Below are positions 39,269-45,293 of a DNA stretch of 64,000 nucleotides, in pieces (position 1 is the stretch's first letter; each line of letters opens with the position of its first letter). The stretch covers positions 8,303 through 72,302 of the forward strand of contig JAJSAH010000009.1 in NCBI GenBank assembly GCA_024274875.1, in the 5' to 3' direction. The position numbers and the translations under genes were made by a program. This DNA comes from an archaeon. GTDB lineage: Archaea; Micrarchaeota; Micrarchaeia; CAILAH01. The notes beneath the pieces are model-generated. The model ran no database searches. It had not been told where the DNA came from and worked only from the letters and a program-made list of their open reading frames with translations.

Positions 39269-39288
39269 GTTTGCGCATATGCATAATC

Positions 39289-40011
39289 ATGGGAGGCCAA
39301 TTAGAAGCGCTTAAACAATTAGGATTGAGCGAAGGCGAGGCGAAGGTGTACCTTGCGCTTGCAGACCTTGGAGAAGCCAGCGTTGGAGAGATACAAAAAA
39401 TAGTGAAAATACATAGGACGACAATATACGATTATTTGGAGAAGCTTGCGAACAAGGGATTGGTTTCGCATTCAATACTTAACCGAACAAAGCGATATTT
39501 CCCAACCGATCCAAAAAACATACTTCTGTATGTTAAACACAAGCAAGAGCTTGCGGAACAGGTTATGCGCGAGCTTGCAAGCAAAAATAAGAAAATGCAC
39601 CGGTTGAAAGTTGAGGTACTGAGCGGAAATCAAGGGTTCAGGATGCTTCTTAATGACATACTTCAATCCGGAGAGAAGGAGTTTATAGGGTTCGGCATAG
39701 ATGAAAAGATGTTTATCAGCGCATTCCCTCCGCATTACATCGAAAAATTCTTCAAAAAAGAGATGGAGTTAGGCATAAGAGAGAGAATGATTACATTTGA
39801 GGGAGCGGAATACACTGCAAAGCATAAGCATATACAATACGCATTCCTCCCAAAAAAATATTTCAGCCCAATACCTATTGCGATATATGCGAACAAAATT
39901 GCAATGATAGTGTGGGAACCAAAATCAGTGATATTGATAACTAATGCAGAGCTTGCTGATAGCTACAGAAAATATTTCGAGTTGATGTGGAAAACCTGCA
40001 AAGAAAAATAA
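39289..40011 (+). CDS. TrmB-family transcriptional regulator
   Basis: The N-terminal wHTH is LKQLGLSEGEAKVYLALADLGEASVGEIQKIVKIHRTTIYDYLEKLANKGLV. The start is set at the ATG at 39289, which looks leaderless. The ORF track starts at a TTG at 39271. Confidence 0.8.
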   Translation: MGGQLEALKQLGLSEGEAKVYLALADLGEASVGEIQKIVKIHRTTIYDYLEKLANKGLVSHSILNRTKRYFPTDPKNILLYVKHKQELAEQVMRELASKNKKMHRLKVEVLSGNQGFRMLLNDILQSGEKEFIGFGIDEKMFISAFPPHYIEKFFKKEMELGIRERMITFEGAEYTAKHKHIQYAFLPKKYFSPIPIAIYANKIAMIVWEPKSVILITNAELADSYRKYFELMWKTCKEK

Positions 40012-40015
40012 AGAA

Positions 40016-40339
40016 TTATTTGCGCTCCTTAAAATCGAGATCGAGACCTCCGCCGACACCGAGAAAGATGTTGTAGGCTATCGCTATAACGGCGCCTATG
40101 ATGAATGAGATCGCTGCAAATATAATTGCCCCTATAAATCCGCCTATTAAAACACCTGCGCTTATCATCAGCGCAGATGTAAGTGCAGATGCTGCATCGT
40201 TTGCTGCGGATTCTAAAAATGCAAGCGCGAAAGATAGCGCAGACCACACCAGCGTTGACAGGAGCGTTATTATGAATGTCCATATTGCCAGCAACTTGCC
40301 CAAAGATACAACGCCAATATGCTTAAGAGTAACTTTCAT
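40016..40339 (-). CDS. Small hydrophobic membrane protein
   Basis: Three Gly/Ala-rich hydrophobic helices are present. No motif was recognised. Confidence 0.45.
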   Translation of the reverse strand: MKVTLKHIGVVSLGKLLAIWTFIITLLSTLVWSALSFALAFLESAANDAASALTSALMISAGVLIGGFIGAIIFAAISFIIGAVIAIAYNIFLGVGGGLDLDFKERK

Positions 40340-40347
40340 GAATTCAT

Positions 40348-43104
40348 ATGAGCAACAAATTATATAAAAGTGGAATCGAGCATTTGTTTATAAAATTCAT
40401 ATATGATTCTTATACTATGGGCGGGCTGTATGCGCAGAAGATAAAGGCGGTTGTATACACGCTGGAAAAGAACGAGAATTTTTTGAGAGCCCTGCTCATA
40501 TACATCGCCACATTATCAGTTCTCCTGGCATTTCCCACTTTTCCATTCCTTGCAGTGCCTTTTATCGCGCTCATACCAGCGATTGCCGGCTATTCGCATC
40601 CTGCATTGGGAACAATATTGAGCGTGCTTATCGCAAACATAGCTGTTGCATACCAATCACCCGTGTTGGGATGGATATTTACAGTTGCGCTGAGCATAAC
40701 TTTGGTCGCATCATTCAAGCACTGGTACATAATTTCACTCTTAGAATTGCTAATATTTGCGCCGTTCGCAAAGGGAATTGGGCCGTTTGGGGGCATCATC
40801 ATCCCAGTGATGTTCATATCTGCGTTAAGGCTTGGAGCGAAGAAGAGCCTTATGATAACTTTGCCTGCAGTATACTTGGTGCTCCTGCTGACAGCAATAT
40901 GGGGAGTTGATAACACTGCGTTCCTCAGCGTCAGCCATCCATATTATGAAGGAATGCGCGGTGCCGTTCCTGAGAAATTGCTTGTTCCATCAAAACCTCC
41001 TGCATCAATATTCAACATTGCAGGTGTGATAGGGAAGGCGATTGGAGGGATGTTCAGCGGGGAGGCGCTAATATACATAAACTCTTTGCTTGGATTGACC
41101 GGAAATGCAACGATTACGTTGTTATTTGGAGATGTAGGCCTCATTGAGATTTTATGCGTTGGAATGCTCATGTACGCAGCCTCTTACCTCCCTGGAATTA
41201 TAAGGAATAAGTACGAACAAACAATCTCTTCGTTCGTGTTTTGGCTGTTTATTCCACTCCACTATGCATTTGCAATGCTCACAGGCAATCAATTCAACCC
41301 TTCAATAATTGCGTATGCAGTAGGCACGACTATGCTTATGTACTATCTCGACCTAAAAAAAGTATACATAGCTGGGCAGACGGCCTCTATACTAAGGGAG
41401 AAGGAAAAAAAGTTCGCAAAATTTGGCATACAGGATTTGGGTTTGGCATCGGCAACCAAGCTAAAGGATATTGGAAACTACGAAGATGTTAAAAAAGAGC
41501 TTAAAACAGCAATATTAATGCCTTTAAGAAGAAAAGATATCAGCCTAGCATACGGGATAAAACCCCCTAAGGGAATTTTGCTGTTTGGTCCTCCTGGCAC
41601 TGGAAAAACACTTCTTATGCGCGCATTTGCAAATGAGATGGAGATTGGTTTTTACTATGTTAAGGCATCGCAGCTTTTGTCCCAATATTTTGGTGAATCA
41701 GAAAAGAATGTGAGCAAAATATTTGAGATTGCTCGCAAGAATGCGCCTGCAGTATTGTTTTTTGATGAGATAGACGCGATAGGAAAAAGCAGGGAATATT
41801 CAAGAGGCGATGAAGCGGCTGCGAGAGTGCTGAGCACGCTGCTTGAAGAGATGGATGGATTGAAATCAGATAGCAATGTTCTTGTAGTTGGCGCAACAAA
41901 CCTGCCTCAAGTTCTTGATAAAGCATTGATGAGGCCTGGAAGATTTGATAAGATTGTTTACATGCATCTTCCTGACTTAAAGGGGAGATTGAAGATATTG
42001 AAAATACACATTAAAGGCATGCCCCTTGCTGATGATGTTAACCTTGAAAAAATTGCCAAAAAGCTCGAAAGATACTCAGGTGCAGACATAGCTAATTTGT
42101 GCAAGGAGGTTAAGAGGATTGCTGCAAAAACCGCGATGGAGAGAGAGGAGATTGTGCCAATAACTATGGATGATTTTGAGAATGTCATCAGCAGACTGAA
42201 ACCGAGCACTACAATTTCAATGTTGGATGATTACGAAAGGTTTAGGCTCGATTATGAGCGAAGGATTGGCGAAGAGAAGCAGAAAGTAAAGCGCATAACC
42301 TGGAATGATGTGATTGGGCTTGATGAAGTTCGGAGCATGCTTAAAGAGGCCATAGAGATTCCGCTATTGCATTCCGAATTGCTCGAAAAATATGATGTCA
42401 AGCCAAGCAAGGGGATTTTGATGTTCGGACCGCCCGGATGCGGGAAAACGCTCATCGTTAAAGCAGCCGCAAACGAACTTAACGTTAATGTGATGAGCGT
42501 GAGCGGCGCAGAACTGCTTAAAAGAGGGTATGAGGGGGCTGTCGCAGTAATTAAGGAAACATTCAACAGAGCGAGGGAGAATGCGCCCGCAGTTGTGTTT
42601 ATTGATGAAATTGAGAGCATCGCCCCAAGCAGGGAGTTGTACAGTTCAAAGTATGTTGAAGATGTGGTGACGCAGCTTCTTCAAGAGATGGATGGTATGA
42701 AAGAACTTAAAGGAGTGCTGCTCATCGGCGCCACAAACAAACCTGAAATGTTGGACAAAGCGTTGCTAAGGCCCGGCAGATTGGACAAAATTGTGTTTGT
42801 CCCGCCTCCTTTAAAACCACAACGAGCCAAAATGTTTAAGTTATTCCTTAAGAAAGTGCCAAAAGAATCAGTTGATTATGATACGCTTGCGGAAGCAAGC
42901 GAGGGTTTCACTGGTGCGGATATAAACAGCGTATGCCAAGAAGCAAAATTCATGCTCGTGAGGAAAAGCATTGCTGGAAAAAAGAATGTCAAATTGGAAA
43001 CTGATGATATACTGAAAGTGATACGGAGAAGAAAACCTTCGCTCACCATGGATATGTTAAGAAAATATAAACGATTCCTTGATGAGTATGGTGAAAGGAT
43101 TTGA
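40348..43104 (+). CDS. Membrane-anchored Cdc48/VCP-type double AAA+ ATPase
   Basis: About 350 aa of polytopic hydrophobic N-terminal domain is followed by two AAA modules. D1 has GPPGTGKT, FFDEIDA and pore loop YFG. D2 has GPPGCGKT and FIDEIES. SRH-like segments are VGATN.P..LD.A..RPGR.D. Confidence 0.85.
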   Translation: MSNKLYKSGIEHLFIKFIYDSYTMGGLYAQKIKAVVYTLEKNENFLRALLIYIATLSVLLAFPTFPFLAVPFIALIPAIAGYSHPALGTILSVLIANIAVAYQSPVLGWIFTVALSITLVASFKHWYIISLLELLIFAPFAKGIGPFGGIIIPVMFISALRLGAKKSLMITLPAVYLVLLLTAIWGVDNTAFLSVSHPYYEGMRGAVPEKLLVPSKPPASIFNIAGVIGKAIGGMFSGEALIYINSLLGLTGNATITLLFGDVGLIEILCVGMLMYAASYLPGIIRNKYEQTISSFVFWLFIPLHYAFAMLTGNQFNPSIIAYAVGTTMLMYYLDLKKVYIAGQTASILREKEKKFAKFGIQDLGLASATKLKDIGNYEDVKKELKTAILMPLRRKDISLAYGIKPPKGILLFGPPGTGKTLLMRAFANEMEIGFYYVKASQLLSQYFGESEKNVSKIFEIARKNAPAVLFFDEIDAIGKSREYSRGDEAAARVLSTLLEEMDGLKSDSNVLVVGATNLPQVLDKALMRPGRFDKIVYMHLPDLKGRLKILKIHIKGMPLADDVNLEKIAKKLERYSGADIANLCKEVKRIAAKTAMEREEIVPITMDDFENVISRLKPSTTISMLDDYERFRLDYERRIGEEKQKVKRITWNDVIGLDEVRSMLKEAIEIPLLHSELLEKYDVKPSKGILMFGPPGCGKTLIVKAAANELNVNVMSVSGAELLKRGYEGAVAVIKETFNRARENAPAVVFIDEIESIAPSRELYSSKYVEDVVTQLLQEMDGMKELKGVLLIGATNKPEMLDKALLRPGRLDKIVFVPPPLKPQRAKMFKLFLKKVPKESVDYDTLAEASEGFTGADINSVCQEAKFMLVRKSIAGKKNVKLETDDILKVIRRRKPSLTMDMLRKYKRFLDEYGERI

Positions 43105-43105
43105 G

Positions 43106-44572
43106 TTATCTGCGGCTTTTACGTATGAGTAGGGACCTTACTTTCATCTTCGCATCTATGCTCTGGCACTGATTGAGCAGAGAGCGAAGTATGTTTTCGG
43201 ATATCTTTTTCTTCGGTCCAGTCTTAATTTCATAAGTAGCGCCGTCTTTAACTAAATCAAAGAAGGAGAATTTTCTTCCAGATGTTGCAGAGCTAACTGA
43301 AATCACTTTTGTAGGGTCGACAACGCTGCATACCATATCAAATATGCGGGATTCGGCAGGAAGCTCAATCTCTTTAACTGATTTCCTGCGCACAACCTTA
43401 ACTTTCATTCTGTCTGACCTTATGGCAAATGACATCGATTCAATATCATCAGTGCTGGCGTCTTTCAGAAAATCGCTGAACCTTGAAACAAGAAGCAATT
43501 TATCCTTATTAATTTTCCTGGGTTTGAACAGCGCGTGCGCCCAATCTCCTTTCTCGCATCTCTCAAGCATCTTTCTGGTCTTTATTTGAACCTCAATATA
43601 AATGCCGTTGTACGGAATATCCACATGAATGGATTGGTATCCTGTTTCTCCCCTTGGGTTTTTTATGTAATCGTCCACATCATCATCTGTTAGGCCAAAC
43701 TTCTCCTTGATCATCTCAGCAATGAAATACGCCTCATCAACTGATTCAGTCACAAGCATAAATGCAACGATATCATGAAGCTTCCTTATGTCTTCGGGGC
43801 TCATTTCCCTTGAAACAAGCTTCAATGTTATGCTTCCGGGCGTTTTAATCCTGCTTCTGCAACACGGATCAACCCTTATTCCATGAAGAGAGATGGCTTC
43901 ATTTACTATATCACTGAGCTCCTGGCTGAATGCTCTTTCGTTCTCCATTATTTTATCGTTCAGCGCGCTAAGCTCCTCCAACACCTTTGAATGCAGCTTT
44001 GGATAAAGAACTTTGGATGAATAATCGCGCAGCTTGTTCATTACAGAATTGAGACCAAGCATATCAGCGAACGGCGTGTAAACATAGAGCATTGACTGCG
44101 CAAGATTGTATATCTGTTCATCAGGTCTATGTTTGTTAATGAGAAAATTATTGATCAGCACGCGCTTATCTTCAGGAAGATGCGAAAGATCAACCGTGCG
44201 GAACACTGCGAGAGGAACATTAGTTGATAATATTGAATAATCCTTCCATTGCTCTTTTTTCGACATATCTAAATGCTTCAAATGCATGAATTCCTCAAAC
44301 AACTTTCCAATTTTAGCGCGTATATCATCGGGAAGCATCTTGCTGGACCTGAAATCTTCATGGTATAATGCTAAACGAAGAAGATCGTAAGGGTCAACAT
44401 TAAACATTCCATTATCGTTACTGTCGTTCATTCCAGATGCAAGTTTTAAAAATAAGGATACATTATGCGAAATTATTGTATCAGACACATCTTTCTTTCT
44501 AAGCCATTCGACTGCTTTTTCTTTCATGCGCTTAAGCATCCCGTGCTTTGTCAATGCTTTTTTATATGTCAT
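43106..44572 (-). CDS. RelA/SpoT-homolog-like protein: degenerate HD-like N-terminus, alarmone-synthetase-like nucleotidyltransferase domain and a TGS-like C-terminus
   Basis: Synthetase-like motifs are RIKTPGSITLKL (RxKxxxSxxxK), HDIVAFMLV, and GYQSIHVDI...IYIEVQIKTRKM....GDWAHALFK (GYxSxH...E.QI.T....A..G.AAH..YK). The N-terminus has LLRLALYHEDF where LLHDxxED is usual. The C-terminus resembles TGS, ending DGATYEIKT. Confidence 0.65.
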   Translation of the reverse strand: MTYKKALTKHGMLKRMKEKAVEWLRKKDVSDTIISHNVSLFLKLASGMNDSNDNGMFNVDPYDLLRLALYHEDFRSSKMLPDDIRAKIGKLFEEFMHLKHLDMSKKEQWKDYSILSTNVPLAVFRTVDLSHLPEDKRVLINNFLINKHRPDEQIYNLAQSMLYVYTPFADMLGLNSVMNKLRDYSSKVLYPKLHSKVLEELSALNDKIMENERAFSQELSDIVNEAISLHGIRVDPCCRSRIKTPGSITLKLVSREMSPEDIRKLHDIVAFMLVTESVDEAYFIAEMIKEKFGLTDDDVDDYIKNPRGETGYQSIHVDIPYNGIYIEVQIKTRKMLERCEKGDWAHALFKPRKINKDKLLLVSRFSDFLKDASTDDIESMSFAIRSDRMKVKVVRRKSVKEIELPAESRIFDMVCSVVDPTKVISVSSATSGRKFSFFDLVKDGATYEIKTGPKKKISENILRSLLNQCQSIDAKMKVRSLLIRKSRR

Positions 44573-44621: not shown

Positions 44622-45293
44622 GTGGAATTAAAGTTCATATATGGGGAACCATTGGCAGTGTGGAAAGATTATTTGATCGCAGCGGATCTGCATATAGGAA
44701 AAAGGGGGCTCCCTGATTGGAATGCGCACTCGAAAGTAATTGAAAGAGTAATGGATACTGAGGGGATTTGCAAGCTAATCATCGCAGGAGATATAAAACA
44801 TAAGATTGGCGGCACCGATGGAAAGGTAGGCAAATTTATAAGAGAAATCGGCTCAAAGTATGAATTGCACATAGTAAAAGGCAATCATGATGGTGGGCTG
44901 AATAAATACGCGCAATACGCCAAAATTTATGGGGCTGATGGCGCAGTTTTTGATGGGCTTGGGGTTTTTCACGGGCATGCGTGGCCTTCTAAGGAAGTTT
45001 TGGAGCAGAAAGTTGCAATAATGGGGCATCTTCATCCGCACGCATGCATTGATGATGAAAATGCAGGTTTTGAAAAAGCATACATAATCGGGGAACTGTC
45101 AGCAGATAAACTTAGCAAGAGATATAAGCGCAAATTTAATAGAAATGCAAAAATTGCAGTCATGCCTTCATTCTCAGAGCCATACGCACGCGGCAACACA
45201 TGCTTCGAACGGCTCTCCCCTGTGATGAAAAGAGATATATTTATAAAAACGACAGCTCAAATATATCTGCTTAATGGCATCAGGATTAAGTAG
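44622..45293 (+). CDS. Calcineurin-like metallophosphoesterase (archaeal SbcD/Mre11-related small phosphoesterase type)
   Basis: The motifs ADLHIG, AGDIKH, GNHD, FHGH and MGHLHP occur in canonical order. The start codon is GTG. Confidence 0.75.
   Translation: MELKFIYGEPLAVWKDYLIAADLHIGKRGLPDWNAHSKVIERVMDTEGICKLIIAGDIKHKIGGTDGKVGKFIREIGSKYELHIVKGNHDGGLNKYAQYAKIYGADGAVFDGLGVFHGHAWPSKEVLEQKVAIMGHLHPHACIDDENAGFEKAYIIGELSADKLSKRYKRKFNRNAKIAVMPSFSEPYARGNTCFERLSPVMKRDIFIKTTAQIYLLNGIRIK

Follow-up and report, generated by a model that had tools for sequence, protein, structure and literature searches.

A conserved Micrarchaeota fusion of an orphan polytopic membrane domain with two classical AAA modules, a candidate double-ring membrane-protein unfoldase

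Double-ring Cdc48 depends on separate membrane partners for protein dislocation. What, then, might be the role of a protein that joins a polytopic membrane domain to a tandem AAA motor in one polypeptide? Such a protein is encoded in the window analysed here, the whole 64,000-nucleotide stretch of a Micrarchaeota contig. The original prediction took it for a Cdc48 whose N-domain had been replaced by 8–10 transmembrane (TM) segments, and proposed a role in membrane-protein extraction, quality control or secretion, which the anatomy makes plausible. We put the probability at roughly one in two that the gene product is a classical AAA ATPase of type II (double-ring), integral to the membrane and working as a hexameric unfoldase that pulls out and unfolds proteins in or associated with the membrane.

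The gene is a single unbroken open reading frame in the ORF listing (918 aa plus stop). Its true translation start is probably M24, at 40417, because the homologues all begin at this residue, residues 1–25 have pLDDT below 50, and the ATG at 40348 is merely 8 nt from the start of the divergent gene. The placement of a TATA-like box, a putative promoter, suggests a leaderless start at M24. At the other end, the TGA stop codon (43102–43104) lies 1 nt from that of the convergent RSH-like gene (TTA at 43106–43108 on the + strand), as had been noted, and this neighbour carries a RelA_SpoT domain. The features of the gene and of its N-terminal part are as follows, with residues numbered from the first codon of the open reading frame.

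40348..43104, + strand: full open reading frame, 918 aa including the first 23 codons, which are probably spurious
40387..40394, + strand: TATA-like box TTTATAAA, about 26 nt upstream of the ATG at 40417, read directly in the sequence
40417..40419, + strand: probable start codon M24, giving a product of 895 aa
40420..40470, + strand: basic amphipathic N-terminal helix, predicted cytoplasmic, residues 25–41, mean K+R 3.8
40474..41355, + strand: orphan polytopic membrane domain, residues 43–336, about 12 predicted TM helices, N-in/C-in
40900..41010, + strand: acidic loop, predicted extracellular, residues 185–221, mean D+E 3.8, K+R 1.9
41356..41457, + strand: basic linker from TM12 to D1, about 35 residues, including a short charged helix, low pLDDT at about 345–347

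Hydropathy and structure prediction agree that a polytopic membrane domain runs straight into the first AAA module through the linker of about 35 residues, as originally proposed. Peaks of 1.6–2.3 in 19-residue Kyte-Doolittle windows occur only within residues 44–311, the maximum beyond residue 370 being 1.08, and the AF2 model of the N-domain is all-helical (pLDDT 79.7, pTM 0.78). The estimate of 8–10 TM segments was too low, however, since the model and charge parity point to nearer 12, and the positive-inside charge pattern agrees with 12 TM helices and two cytoplasmic ends. This predicted membrane domain has no recognisable relative in Pfam, NCBIfam, PADLOC or the PDB. Residues 1–365 gave no Pfam or NCBIfam match, including none to a double-psi beta-barrel or beta-clam N-domain; phmmer against the PDB returned nothing at E ≤ 10; and a Foldseek search of the model against the PDB gave a best E of 0.68 with TM-scores below 0.2, leaving rhomboid/Derlin, MFS, ABC TMD and other transporter folds without a match. 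Sub-threshold matches to DUF5976 cover one 23-residue TM helix and were discarded as noise.

Within the domain the motifs YQSP (102–105), FAPF (137–140), LGAKKS (162–167) and GDVG (261–264) are conserved, with conserved polar motifs on both membrane faces and conserved intramembrane polar residues at Q103, D262 and Q291. These intramembrane residues, together with 12 TM helices in the N-in/C-in arrangement that is typical of secondary transporters, might indicate a small-molecule or lipid transporter or an enzyme, which the AAA rings would regulate or energise without threading a polypeptide. We consider this very improbable: the domain lacks an internal 6+6 repeat (under 2% probability by hhalign), neither Pfam nor Foldseek gave any likeness to a transporter or enzyme fold, and we know of no precedent for a classical AAA protein energising small-molecule transport. 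The AAA modules themselves, described below, also argue against it.

The joining of the two parts is a genuine conserved fusion, as the original prediction assumed. A profile of the N-domain matches 296 of 401 Micrarchaeota genomes (146 of the 188 high-quality ones), and some of the genomes scored negative by this profile contain divergent copies. In 1.84 billion (1.84e9) representative proteins it has only 54 matches, all of them AAA-fused or contig-end fragments; by this survey the family is near-universal in, and restricted to, one host-dependent archaeal phylum. The orthologues, of about 900 aa, can be aligned over their full length at a mean column identity of 70%, and the linker between the membrane domain and D1 is conserved among homologues. 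Both parts of the protein are under purifying selection, with pN for the membrane domain at 0.22–0.27 against a saturated pS. No stand-alone membrane domain was seen: the short matches checked (199–444 aa) break off within the domain, in the linker or where D1 begins, and look like contig-end fragments. With the same frame of about 900 aa in hundreds of independent assemblies and the linker conserved, the probability that a frameshift or assembly error fused two genes is negligible. Single-AAA variants of the family (619–652 aa) also exist, which makes D2 dispensable in some lineages and counts against the double-ring unfoldase reading.

The remainder of the protein consists of two AAA modules.

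41458..42267, + strand: AAA module D1, residues 371–640
41587–41610, + strand: D1 Walker A, GPPGTGKT, residues 414–421
41686–41703, + strand: D1 pore loop 1, YFGESE, with YFG at 447–449
41758–41775, + strand: D1 Walker B, DEID, residues 473–476
41890–41949, + strand: D1 sensor-1 (N518) and arginine fingers (R529/R532)
42199–42264, + strand: D1 Vps4_C-like terminal helix
42268..42291, + strand: flexible D1–D2 linker, residues 641–648, pLDDT below 50
42292..43101, + strand: AAA module D2, residues 649–918
42427–42450, + strand: D2 Walker A, GPPGCGKT, residues 694–701
42526–42540, + strand: D2 degenerate pore loop, GYEGA, residues 727–731
42598–42615, + strand: D2 Walker B, DEIE, residues 753–756
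42727–42786, + strand: D2 sensor-1 (N797) and arginine fingers (R808/R811)
43033–43101, + strand: D2 terminal helix and conserved ..EYGER-x tail, no HbYX

The Walker A, Walker B and pore-loop motifs of both modules were found by direct reading where they had been expected. Pfam finds two AAA domains, two AAA_lid_3 domains and a Vps4_C helix in the full protein, and PF00004 scores 274.8 bits in total over two stretches, which places the protein in the classical AAA clade. GPPGxGKT, the Walker B DE, the sensor-1 asparagines and all four arginine fingers are invariant among 15 aligned members, and Walker A and the Walker B DE are retained in both modules of every tandem member tabulated (28/28). 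The D1 pore loop is kept family-wide as [YWF]-x-G-E-[ST]-E and the D2 pore loop is variable. Inteins are known to home to indispensable sites, and in four family members the insertion point falls precisely within D1 pore loop 1. Classical AAA modules that retain such an aromatic pore loop are polypeptide motors, and this and the targeting of the loop by inteins both speak against the transporter or enzyme reading. The full-length monomer model has a pTM of 0.43.

No protease domain follows, in agreement with the original prediction. The D2 AAA core is succeeded by AAA_lid_3 (841–877) and the Vps4_C helix (882–915), which fill the C-terminus up to the stop at 918, and no peptidase family occurs in the best 25 of 42 Pfam matches. 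The protein is neither FtsH nor LonB, as had been argued, with no M41 or Lon_C domain among the same 25 of 42 matches and a score of 425 bits with the FtsH model TIGR01241 against a cut-off of 600. Like FtsH and LonB it has an N-terminal membrane anchor, an AAA ring held under the membrane by a short linker and an aromatic D1-type pore loop, but it has 12 TM helices instead of two, two AAA rings instead of one, and neither of their protease domains. In FtsH the M41 zinc-metalloprotease follows one AAA module, and LonB has an S16 (Lon_C) protease and TM helices inserted into its AAA+ module.

The description of the protein as a Cdc48 with a replaced N-domain holds in part. Its nearest characterised relatives are p97, Cdc48 and VAT, and the closest solved structures are those of p97/Cdc48 (p97 is 38–40% identical across some 560 aligned columns). 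It shares with them a stacked pair of classical AAA modules containing SRH and arginine fingers, presumably assembled as a hexameric threading motor. However, the 12-TM domain stands in place of the double-psi-barrel N-domain, D1 and not D2 has the canonical pore loop, and a soluble Cdc48 is co-resident. The Cdc48/VCP/VAT model TIGR01243 gives 534.6 bits over the whole protein, short of its cut-off of 802.65, and for both AAA modules the best match within the CDC48 profile lies in its D2 half (positions ~446–730). The other family models also score below their cut-offs: the PAN models TIGR01242/NF003069 give 448–473 bits as a two-module sum, matching only profile positions ~105–360 (cut-off 500), and the CdvC model NF041006 gives 381 bits (cut-off 650). 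PAN itself combines an N-terminal coiled coil and an OB ring with one AAA module. A D1-only search of a 5.8-billion-protein database returned mostly partial Cdc48 fragments and does not place the modules.

Trees of the AAA modules were computed under two models (LG+G4 and a C20 mixture) with FtsH as the outgroup. In these trees both modules join CdvC/Vps4 and a TPR-AAA protein in a clade supported at 100/99, adjoining Cdc48-D2 and apart from Cdc48-D1, with PAN also apart. Forcing D1 to group with Cdc48-D1 was rejected by the AU test (p = 0.044 for LG+G4 and 0.022 for the C20 mixture), whereas grouping D2 with Cdc48-D2 was not (p = 0.12). D1 also has its own Vps4_C-like terminal helix, which is absent from Cdc48-D1. 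On these comparisons D1 is not an orthologue of Cdc48-D1, and the two modules both resemble Cdc48-D2 and Vps4.

The likeness to Vps4/CdvC raises the alternative that the protein is a membrane-remodelling or complex-disassembly ATPase, in which Vps4/CdvC-like modules would dismantle membrane-bound polymers or complexes, such as division, vesicle or cell-cell contact machinery, and the TM domain would act as a localiser. This is consistent with the clustering of both modules with CdvC/Vps4, their Vps4_C-like terminal helices (Pfam Vps4_C, E = 5.8e-9 on the protein) and a gene that stands alone with no protease partner. However, Pfam finds no MIT or other ESCRT-III-binding domain, the grouping with CdvC/TPR-AAA involves long branches, and the protein is membrane-integral with its modules in tandem, in contrast to the single module of Vps4/CdvC. 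A conserved membrane domain of 300 residues under purifying selection also exceeds what a localisation tag would need, and we consider this alternative improbable.

We therefore return to the double-ring unfoldase, and propose the following mechanism. In the assembled motor, six subunits would assemble into a D1 and a D2 ring, stacked and suspended beneath the membrane, each subunit being tethered by its 12-helix membrane domain via the linker of ~35 residues, giving ~72 TM helices per hexamer, with the D1 pore facing the membrane. ATP hydrolysis in D1 would move the conserved aromatic pore loops, which may grip a polypeptide offered at or by the membrane domain, and the chain would be threaded from D1 to D2 into the cytoplasm, so that membrane or membrane-associated proteins are extracted and unfolded. 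D2, hydrolysis-competent but with a degenerate pore loop, may contribute mainly ring stability and extra power. In the known type-II AAA unfoldases Cdc48, NSF and ClpB, substrates are taken in from the N-domain/D1 side, and D1-first threading is supported here by the fact that the nearest solved structures are those of substrate-threading p97/Cdc48. No protease domain is present, and the family ends in ..EYGER-x and not in the HbYX motif through which the archaeal proteasome caps Cdc48/VAT and PAN dock on the 20S proteasome. Once freed, the chain would be re-inserted or passed for degradation to separate proteases, either Cdc48-20S or LonB. The missing HbYX tail also rules out a direct proteasome cap.

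The same genome encodes a canonical soluble Cdc48, LonB and a 20S proteasome. Its soluble Cdc48 has a conserved Cdc48-type N-terminus, recognised by eye (VAEAL..DVGRGIVRID...TGD), and ends ..IMYR, an HbYX-like tail with a penultimate tyrosine. LonB is the usual archaeal membrane protease, and all 21 relatives surveyed have separate LonB genes, of about 640–680 aa. The protein is thus not simply a gap-filler, and a role as stand-in for a missing LonB or Cdc48 is rejected. The presence of LonB also counts against our preferred reading, since a dedicated membrane quality-control protease is already there. No conserved operon partner was seen, as the neighbours vary between sub-lineages and the RSH-like and metallophosphoesterase genes represent local synteny only; with no conserved neighbour gene, the protein looks self-contained. 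Searches against anti-phage defence systems gave just generic AAA matches (IetA, TRIP13) on the ATPase part, and this assignment was rejected.

That LonB already covers membrane proteolysis would also suit a polypeptide translocase instead of a quality-control dislocase, with the six 12-TM domains forming or gating a conduit. The AAA rings would then draw specific proteins, for instance host-derived or surface ones, into the symbiont through its membrane, or would power the export or assembly of envelope components. FtsH, Msp1 and Bcs1 use one or two anchor helices per subunit, and the predicted ~72 helices per hexamer go far beyond any anchoring need. Polar motifs conserved at both membrane faces, and the confinement of the family to an episymbiont phylum in which it is nearly universal, point in the same direction. 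However, the membrane domain resembles no known translocon or transporter fold (Foldseek against the PDB) and no co-conserved envelope or secretion genes were seen near the gene. Export would moreover need threading from D2 to D1, the reverse of known type-II AAA motors, and the D2 pore loop is degenerate. We regard translocation as a tentative and rather unlikely reading. The narrower assignment to a new class of ATP-driven polypeptide conduits, in which six 12-TM domains would together make a gated membrane path and the D1 ring directly below would reel polypeptides, for example host-derived or surface-captured proteins, into the cytoplasm, is a long shot.

For extraction by the double-ring unfoldase, the ERAD machinery (Cdc48 with Derlin/Hrd1) offers a functional analogy only, in that a multi-helix membrane platform is combined with a double-ring AAA motor pulling polypeptides from the membrane. 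Here, however, both parts reside in one polypeptide, there are no ubiquitin-type adaptor domains, and nothing resembling a rhomboid/Derlin or Hrd1 fold turned up for the membrane domain in the Foldseek search of the PDB. Msp1/ATAD1 and Bcs1, compared by architecture only, are likewise protease-less, membrane-tethered classical AAA proteins; Msp1 extracts (tail-anchored) proteins and Bcs1 translocates proteins. The single-AAA variants of the family resemble them in layout, but Msp1/ATAD1 and Bcs1 are single-ring proteins whose subunits each have one TM helix, whereas the membrane domain described here is large and unrelated.

A full-text literature search found no description of this family, and the combination of a large, conserved, fold-orphan membrane domain with a double-ring motor in one polypeptide is an undescribed design in the literature searched. 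The placement of its modules indicates that this tandem AAA architecture arose independently of Cdc48, and the family deserves an annotation of its own in place of "AAA family ATPase" or "CDC48". As a minimal one-gene system, it lends itself to work on the way in which AAA motors take hold of their substrates at a membrane. If the membrane domains do form a conduit, the protein would be a single-gene machine for protein import or dislocation in genome-reduced episymbionts, comparable in mechanism to ERAD or to the Ycf2-FtsHi motor of chloroplasts but of independent, archaeal origin. As a lineage-defining protein, it may bear on the envelope biology of Micrarchaeota or on their interaction with their hosts.

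The membrane AAA protein was originally predicted to be a Cdc48-type tandem ATPase whose N-domain had been replaced by a polytopic membrane domain. Direct reading of the sequence confirms that the motifs proposed for D1 and D2, its two AAA modules, are in place, as is the 1-nt gap between its TGA stop (43102-43104) and the stop of the convergent RelA_SpoT-domain (RSH-like) gene. The features of the locus, with residues numbered from the 40348 start, are as follows:

39271-40011, plus strand: TrmB-family transcriptional regulator, two genes upstream of the AAA gene
40016-40339, minus strand: small hydrophobic protein, 107 aa, divergent from the AAA gene, no Pfam match
40348-43104, plus strand: membrane AAA ORF, single unbroken frame, 918 aa
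Residues 414-421, 447-449 and 473-476: D1 motifs GPPGTGKT, YFG and DEID
Residues 694-701, 727-731 and 753-756: D2 motifs GPPGCGKT, GYEGA and DEIE
43106-44572, minus strand: RelA_SpoT-domain gene, 488 aa, stop reading TTA on the plus strand (43106-43108)
44622-45293, plus strand: metallophosphoesterase

Pfam assigns two AAA domains (410-540 and ~690-820), two AAA_lid_3 domains and a C-terminal Vps4_C helix; as anticipated, no protease domain is among the matches listed, and residues 1-365 match no Pfam family. Translation probably starts at M24 (40417) rather than at 40348. All homologues start at the equivalent position in the alignment and a TTTATAAA box lies ~26 nt 5' of ATG 40417, while ATG 40348 is only 8 nt from the start of the divergent neighbour, and residues 1-25 have a pLDDT below 50 in the full-length model.

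On the sequence evidence, the fusion of membrane domain and tandem AAA modules is genuine. A search with residues 1-365 only returned 17 further proteins of 892-901 aa and one of 1440 aa with an intein, all with the same layout and, wherever the source was named, from Micrarchaeia or Micrarchaeota; an end-to-end alignment of 15 homologues has a mean column identity of 70%. Matches to an N-domain-only profile occur in 296/401 genomes of the phylum (146/188 high-quality genomes, 115/155 genera) and, contig-cut and intein-bearing copies excepted, sit in ~900-aa open frames, a recurrence that rules out a frameshift fusion of two separate genes. Diverged copies are present in at least two genomes scored negative by this profile: a 913-aa tandem form with YQSP..W and LGxK(R/K)S motifs (G002), and, away from the ends of a 48-kb contig, a 629-aa form with one AAA module (G001:C7, locus L055). 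A third genome with a weak score (G003, E = 1.7e-25) carries a tandem copy of 930 aa. Synonymous sites are saturated among relatives (pS 0.71-0.85) and pN is far lower (0.22-0.27 in the membrane domain, about 0.14 in the ATPase part), so that both parts are under strong purifying selection.

Among 1.84 billion representative proteins the N-domain profile matched only 54, which are full-length fusions, five single-AAA forms (619-652 aa) or fragments, the N-domain fragments ending mid-domain or at the first D1 residues. Every GTDB species genome was scanned by pattern, which confirmed 14 loci: 13 labelled Micrarchaeota/Micrarchaeia (the phylum is now Microcaldota at NCBI) and one labelled 'Candidatus ainarchaeum sp.' that lacks a phylum assignment. 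The single-AAA representatives (P0050, P0052, P0061, P0062, P0070 and the L055 protein) have the same membrane domain as the tandem forms. In the tree, single-AAA forms nest within the tandem ones; the single-AAA state is therefore secondary. The lone module of P0052 groups with the D2 clade, away from D1, which suggests that D1 was lost in that lineage.

The hydrophobic character claimed for the N-terminal region is borne out, with 19-residue Kyte-Doolittle peaks of 1.6-2.3 only within residues 44-311 and a maximum of 1.08 beyond residue 370. Its polytopic nature likewise agrees with the all-helical AlphaFold2 model (12-sequence alignment, pLDDT 79.7, pTM 0.78), whose helices reappear in the full-length model; the TM segments number closer to 12 than to the predicted 8-10, since the counts of hydrophobic helices between charge anchor points have a parity that fits 12, with both ends cytoplasmic. 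Family-wide, K and R are concentrated in the N-terminal amphipathic helix, at residues 161-167 (RLGAKKS) and 284-290 (IRNKYE), and in the linker preceding D1; loop 185-221 is acidic. No internal repeat was found, no sequence relative was detected in Pfam, NCBIfam, PADLOC or PDB, and Foldseek gave no solved structural neighbour (best E = 0.68, TM-scores below 0.2); within the reach of these resources the domain is thus an orphan fold. A transporter or enzyme regulated by its ATPase appears very unlikely.

Descent from Cdc48 by N-domain replacement is not upheld. Although the top matches, in sequence and structure alike, are p97/Cdc48/VAT (38-40% identity across about 560 columns), the protein scores 534.6 bits against the curated CDC48 (TIGR01243) cut-off of 802.65, and D1 alone and D2 alone each align to the D2 half of that profile. 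A tree was built from 58 AAA modules, comprising D1 and D2 of the family (memD1, memD2), single-AAA variants, ten canonical Cdc48s split into D1/D2, two bona fide PANs, one CdvC and the genome's TPR-AAA protein (C20:68917-70521, 534 aa, N-terminal TPR repeats and a single AAA module), with limited outgroup sampling (E. coli FtsH). PAN branches first, then Cdc48-D1 (100/99), then a Cdc48-D2 grade within which memD2, memD1, CdvC and TPR-AAA form a 100/99 clade; the topology is unchanged under LG+C20+F+G4. Constraining memD1 with Cdc48-D1 costs 26-28 log-likelihood units and is rejected by AU tests (p = 0.044 and 0.022), so memD1 is not a Cdc48-D1 orthologue. Neither an exclusive memD1 + memD2 clade (p = 0.10) nor a memD2 + Cdc48-D2 grouping (p = 0.12) is rejected, and long mem, CdvC and TPR branches make any choice of exact sister group tentative; memD1 identities of 41-47% are alike to Cdc48-D1, Cdc48-D2 and memD2 and uninformative for placement. 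Independently of the tree, memD1 terminates in its own Vps4_C-like helix (KPSTTISMLDDYERFRLDYERR), as memD2 does, whereas Cdc48-D1 lacks one. The simplest history would be that a single D2/Vps4-type module was duplicated C-terminal to the membrane domain, rather than that a Cdc48 exchanged its N-domain. That the protein is a Vps4-like remodelling ATPase is improbable in our estimation. Most relatives conserve the TPR-AAA protein, with a length of ~540-570 aa; in the tree it clusters with CdvC/Vps4, on long branches.

Across 15 aligned members, neither D1 nor D2 varies in Walker A, Walker B (DE), the sensor-1 Asn or either Arg finger. All 28 tandem members tabulated also retain Walker A and the 'DE' of Walker B in D1 and D2 alike, so that both rings seem competent for hydrolysis. 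Nearly every member has a canonical pore loop 1 in D1, [YWF]-x-G-E-[ST]-E; in D2 the corresponding loop is degenerate and varies among members (GYEGA, GFTQS, GSQSA, LGIERA and others). Four members (P0018, P0021, P0022, P0024) carry inteins within the D1 pore-loop codons (YFGE|SEKN; window 41695/41696, residue 450|451), of ~495 aa with LAGLIDADG or as a 181-aa mini-intein. Inteins typically home to indispensable sites, and this position fits D1 as the working pore. P0022 has a second intein immediately ahead of the D1 Walker B, and the ~150 open frames listed for the phylum include ~20 of roughly 1400 aa or more.

The genome (833 kb, about 90% complete) also encodes RFC/Orc paralogues and a canonical soluble Cdc48/VAT (C8:5567-7726, 716 aa), with an N-terminal sequence of Cdc48 type as judged by eye and an HbYX-like tail (..IMYR). 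LonB and 20S alpha and beta subunits were found in 21/21 Micrarchaeia genomes, none of which has a PAN over its cut-off; Cdc48 therefore probably caps the proteasome, as it does in Thermoplasma. The membrane AAA protein is thus an extra lineage-specific paralogue, and a role as stand-in for a missing protease or cap is ruled out. The penultimate residue of its conserved family tail (..EYGER-x) is not Tyr, hence it lacks an HbYX motif. Neighbouring genes are conserved only within sub-lineages (upstream phosphoglucomutase, aminotransferase or AIRS-family genes). The RelA_SpoT and metallophosphoesterase genes lie downstream of the AAA gene in close relatives only (about 5 and 3 loci, respectively) and so have no functional link to it, and the membrane AAA protein appears self-contained. 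A small divergent ORF family (representative 156 aa), which may or may not include the 107-aa protein, occupies the same position in 7 close-relative loci; the TrmB-family regulator is absent from the neighbour families recurring across 32 compared loci.

To our knowledge, every characterised type-II classical AAA protein assembles six subunits into stacked rings, with N-domains on the D1 face and substrate entering through D1. By analogy, six membrane AAA subunits would form stacked rings with the same polarity; with the N-domains in the membrane and a linker of only about 35 residues, D1 would lie just beneath the bilayer, its aromatic pore loops towards it. The 72-helix membrane assembly would present or pass polypeptides, ATP hydrolysis would pull them into the cytoplasm, and separate proteases could take over there. 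An ATP-driven dislocase or unfoldase is the most economical reading (probability about 0.5); a dedicated translocase or importer is a less probable, tentative alternative. Source annotations of the homologues read only "AAA family ATPase", and no description of the family was found in the literature searched. Among membrane-tethered AAA motors these proteins constitute a new architectural variant, distinguished by an orphan membrane domain, and they merit a separate family.
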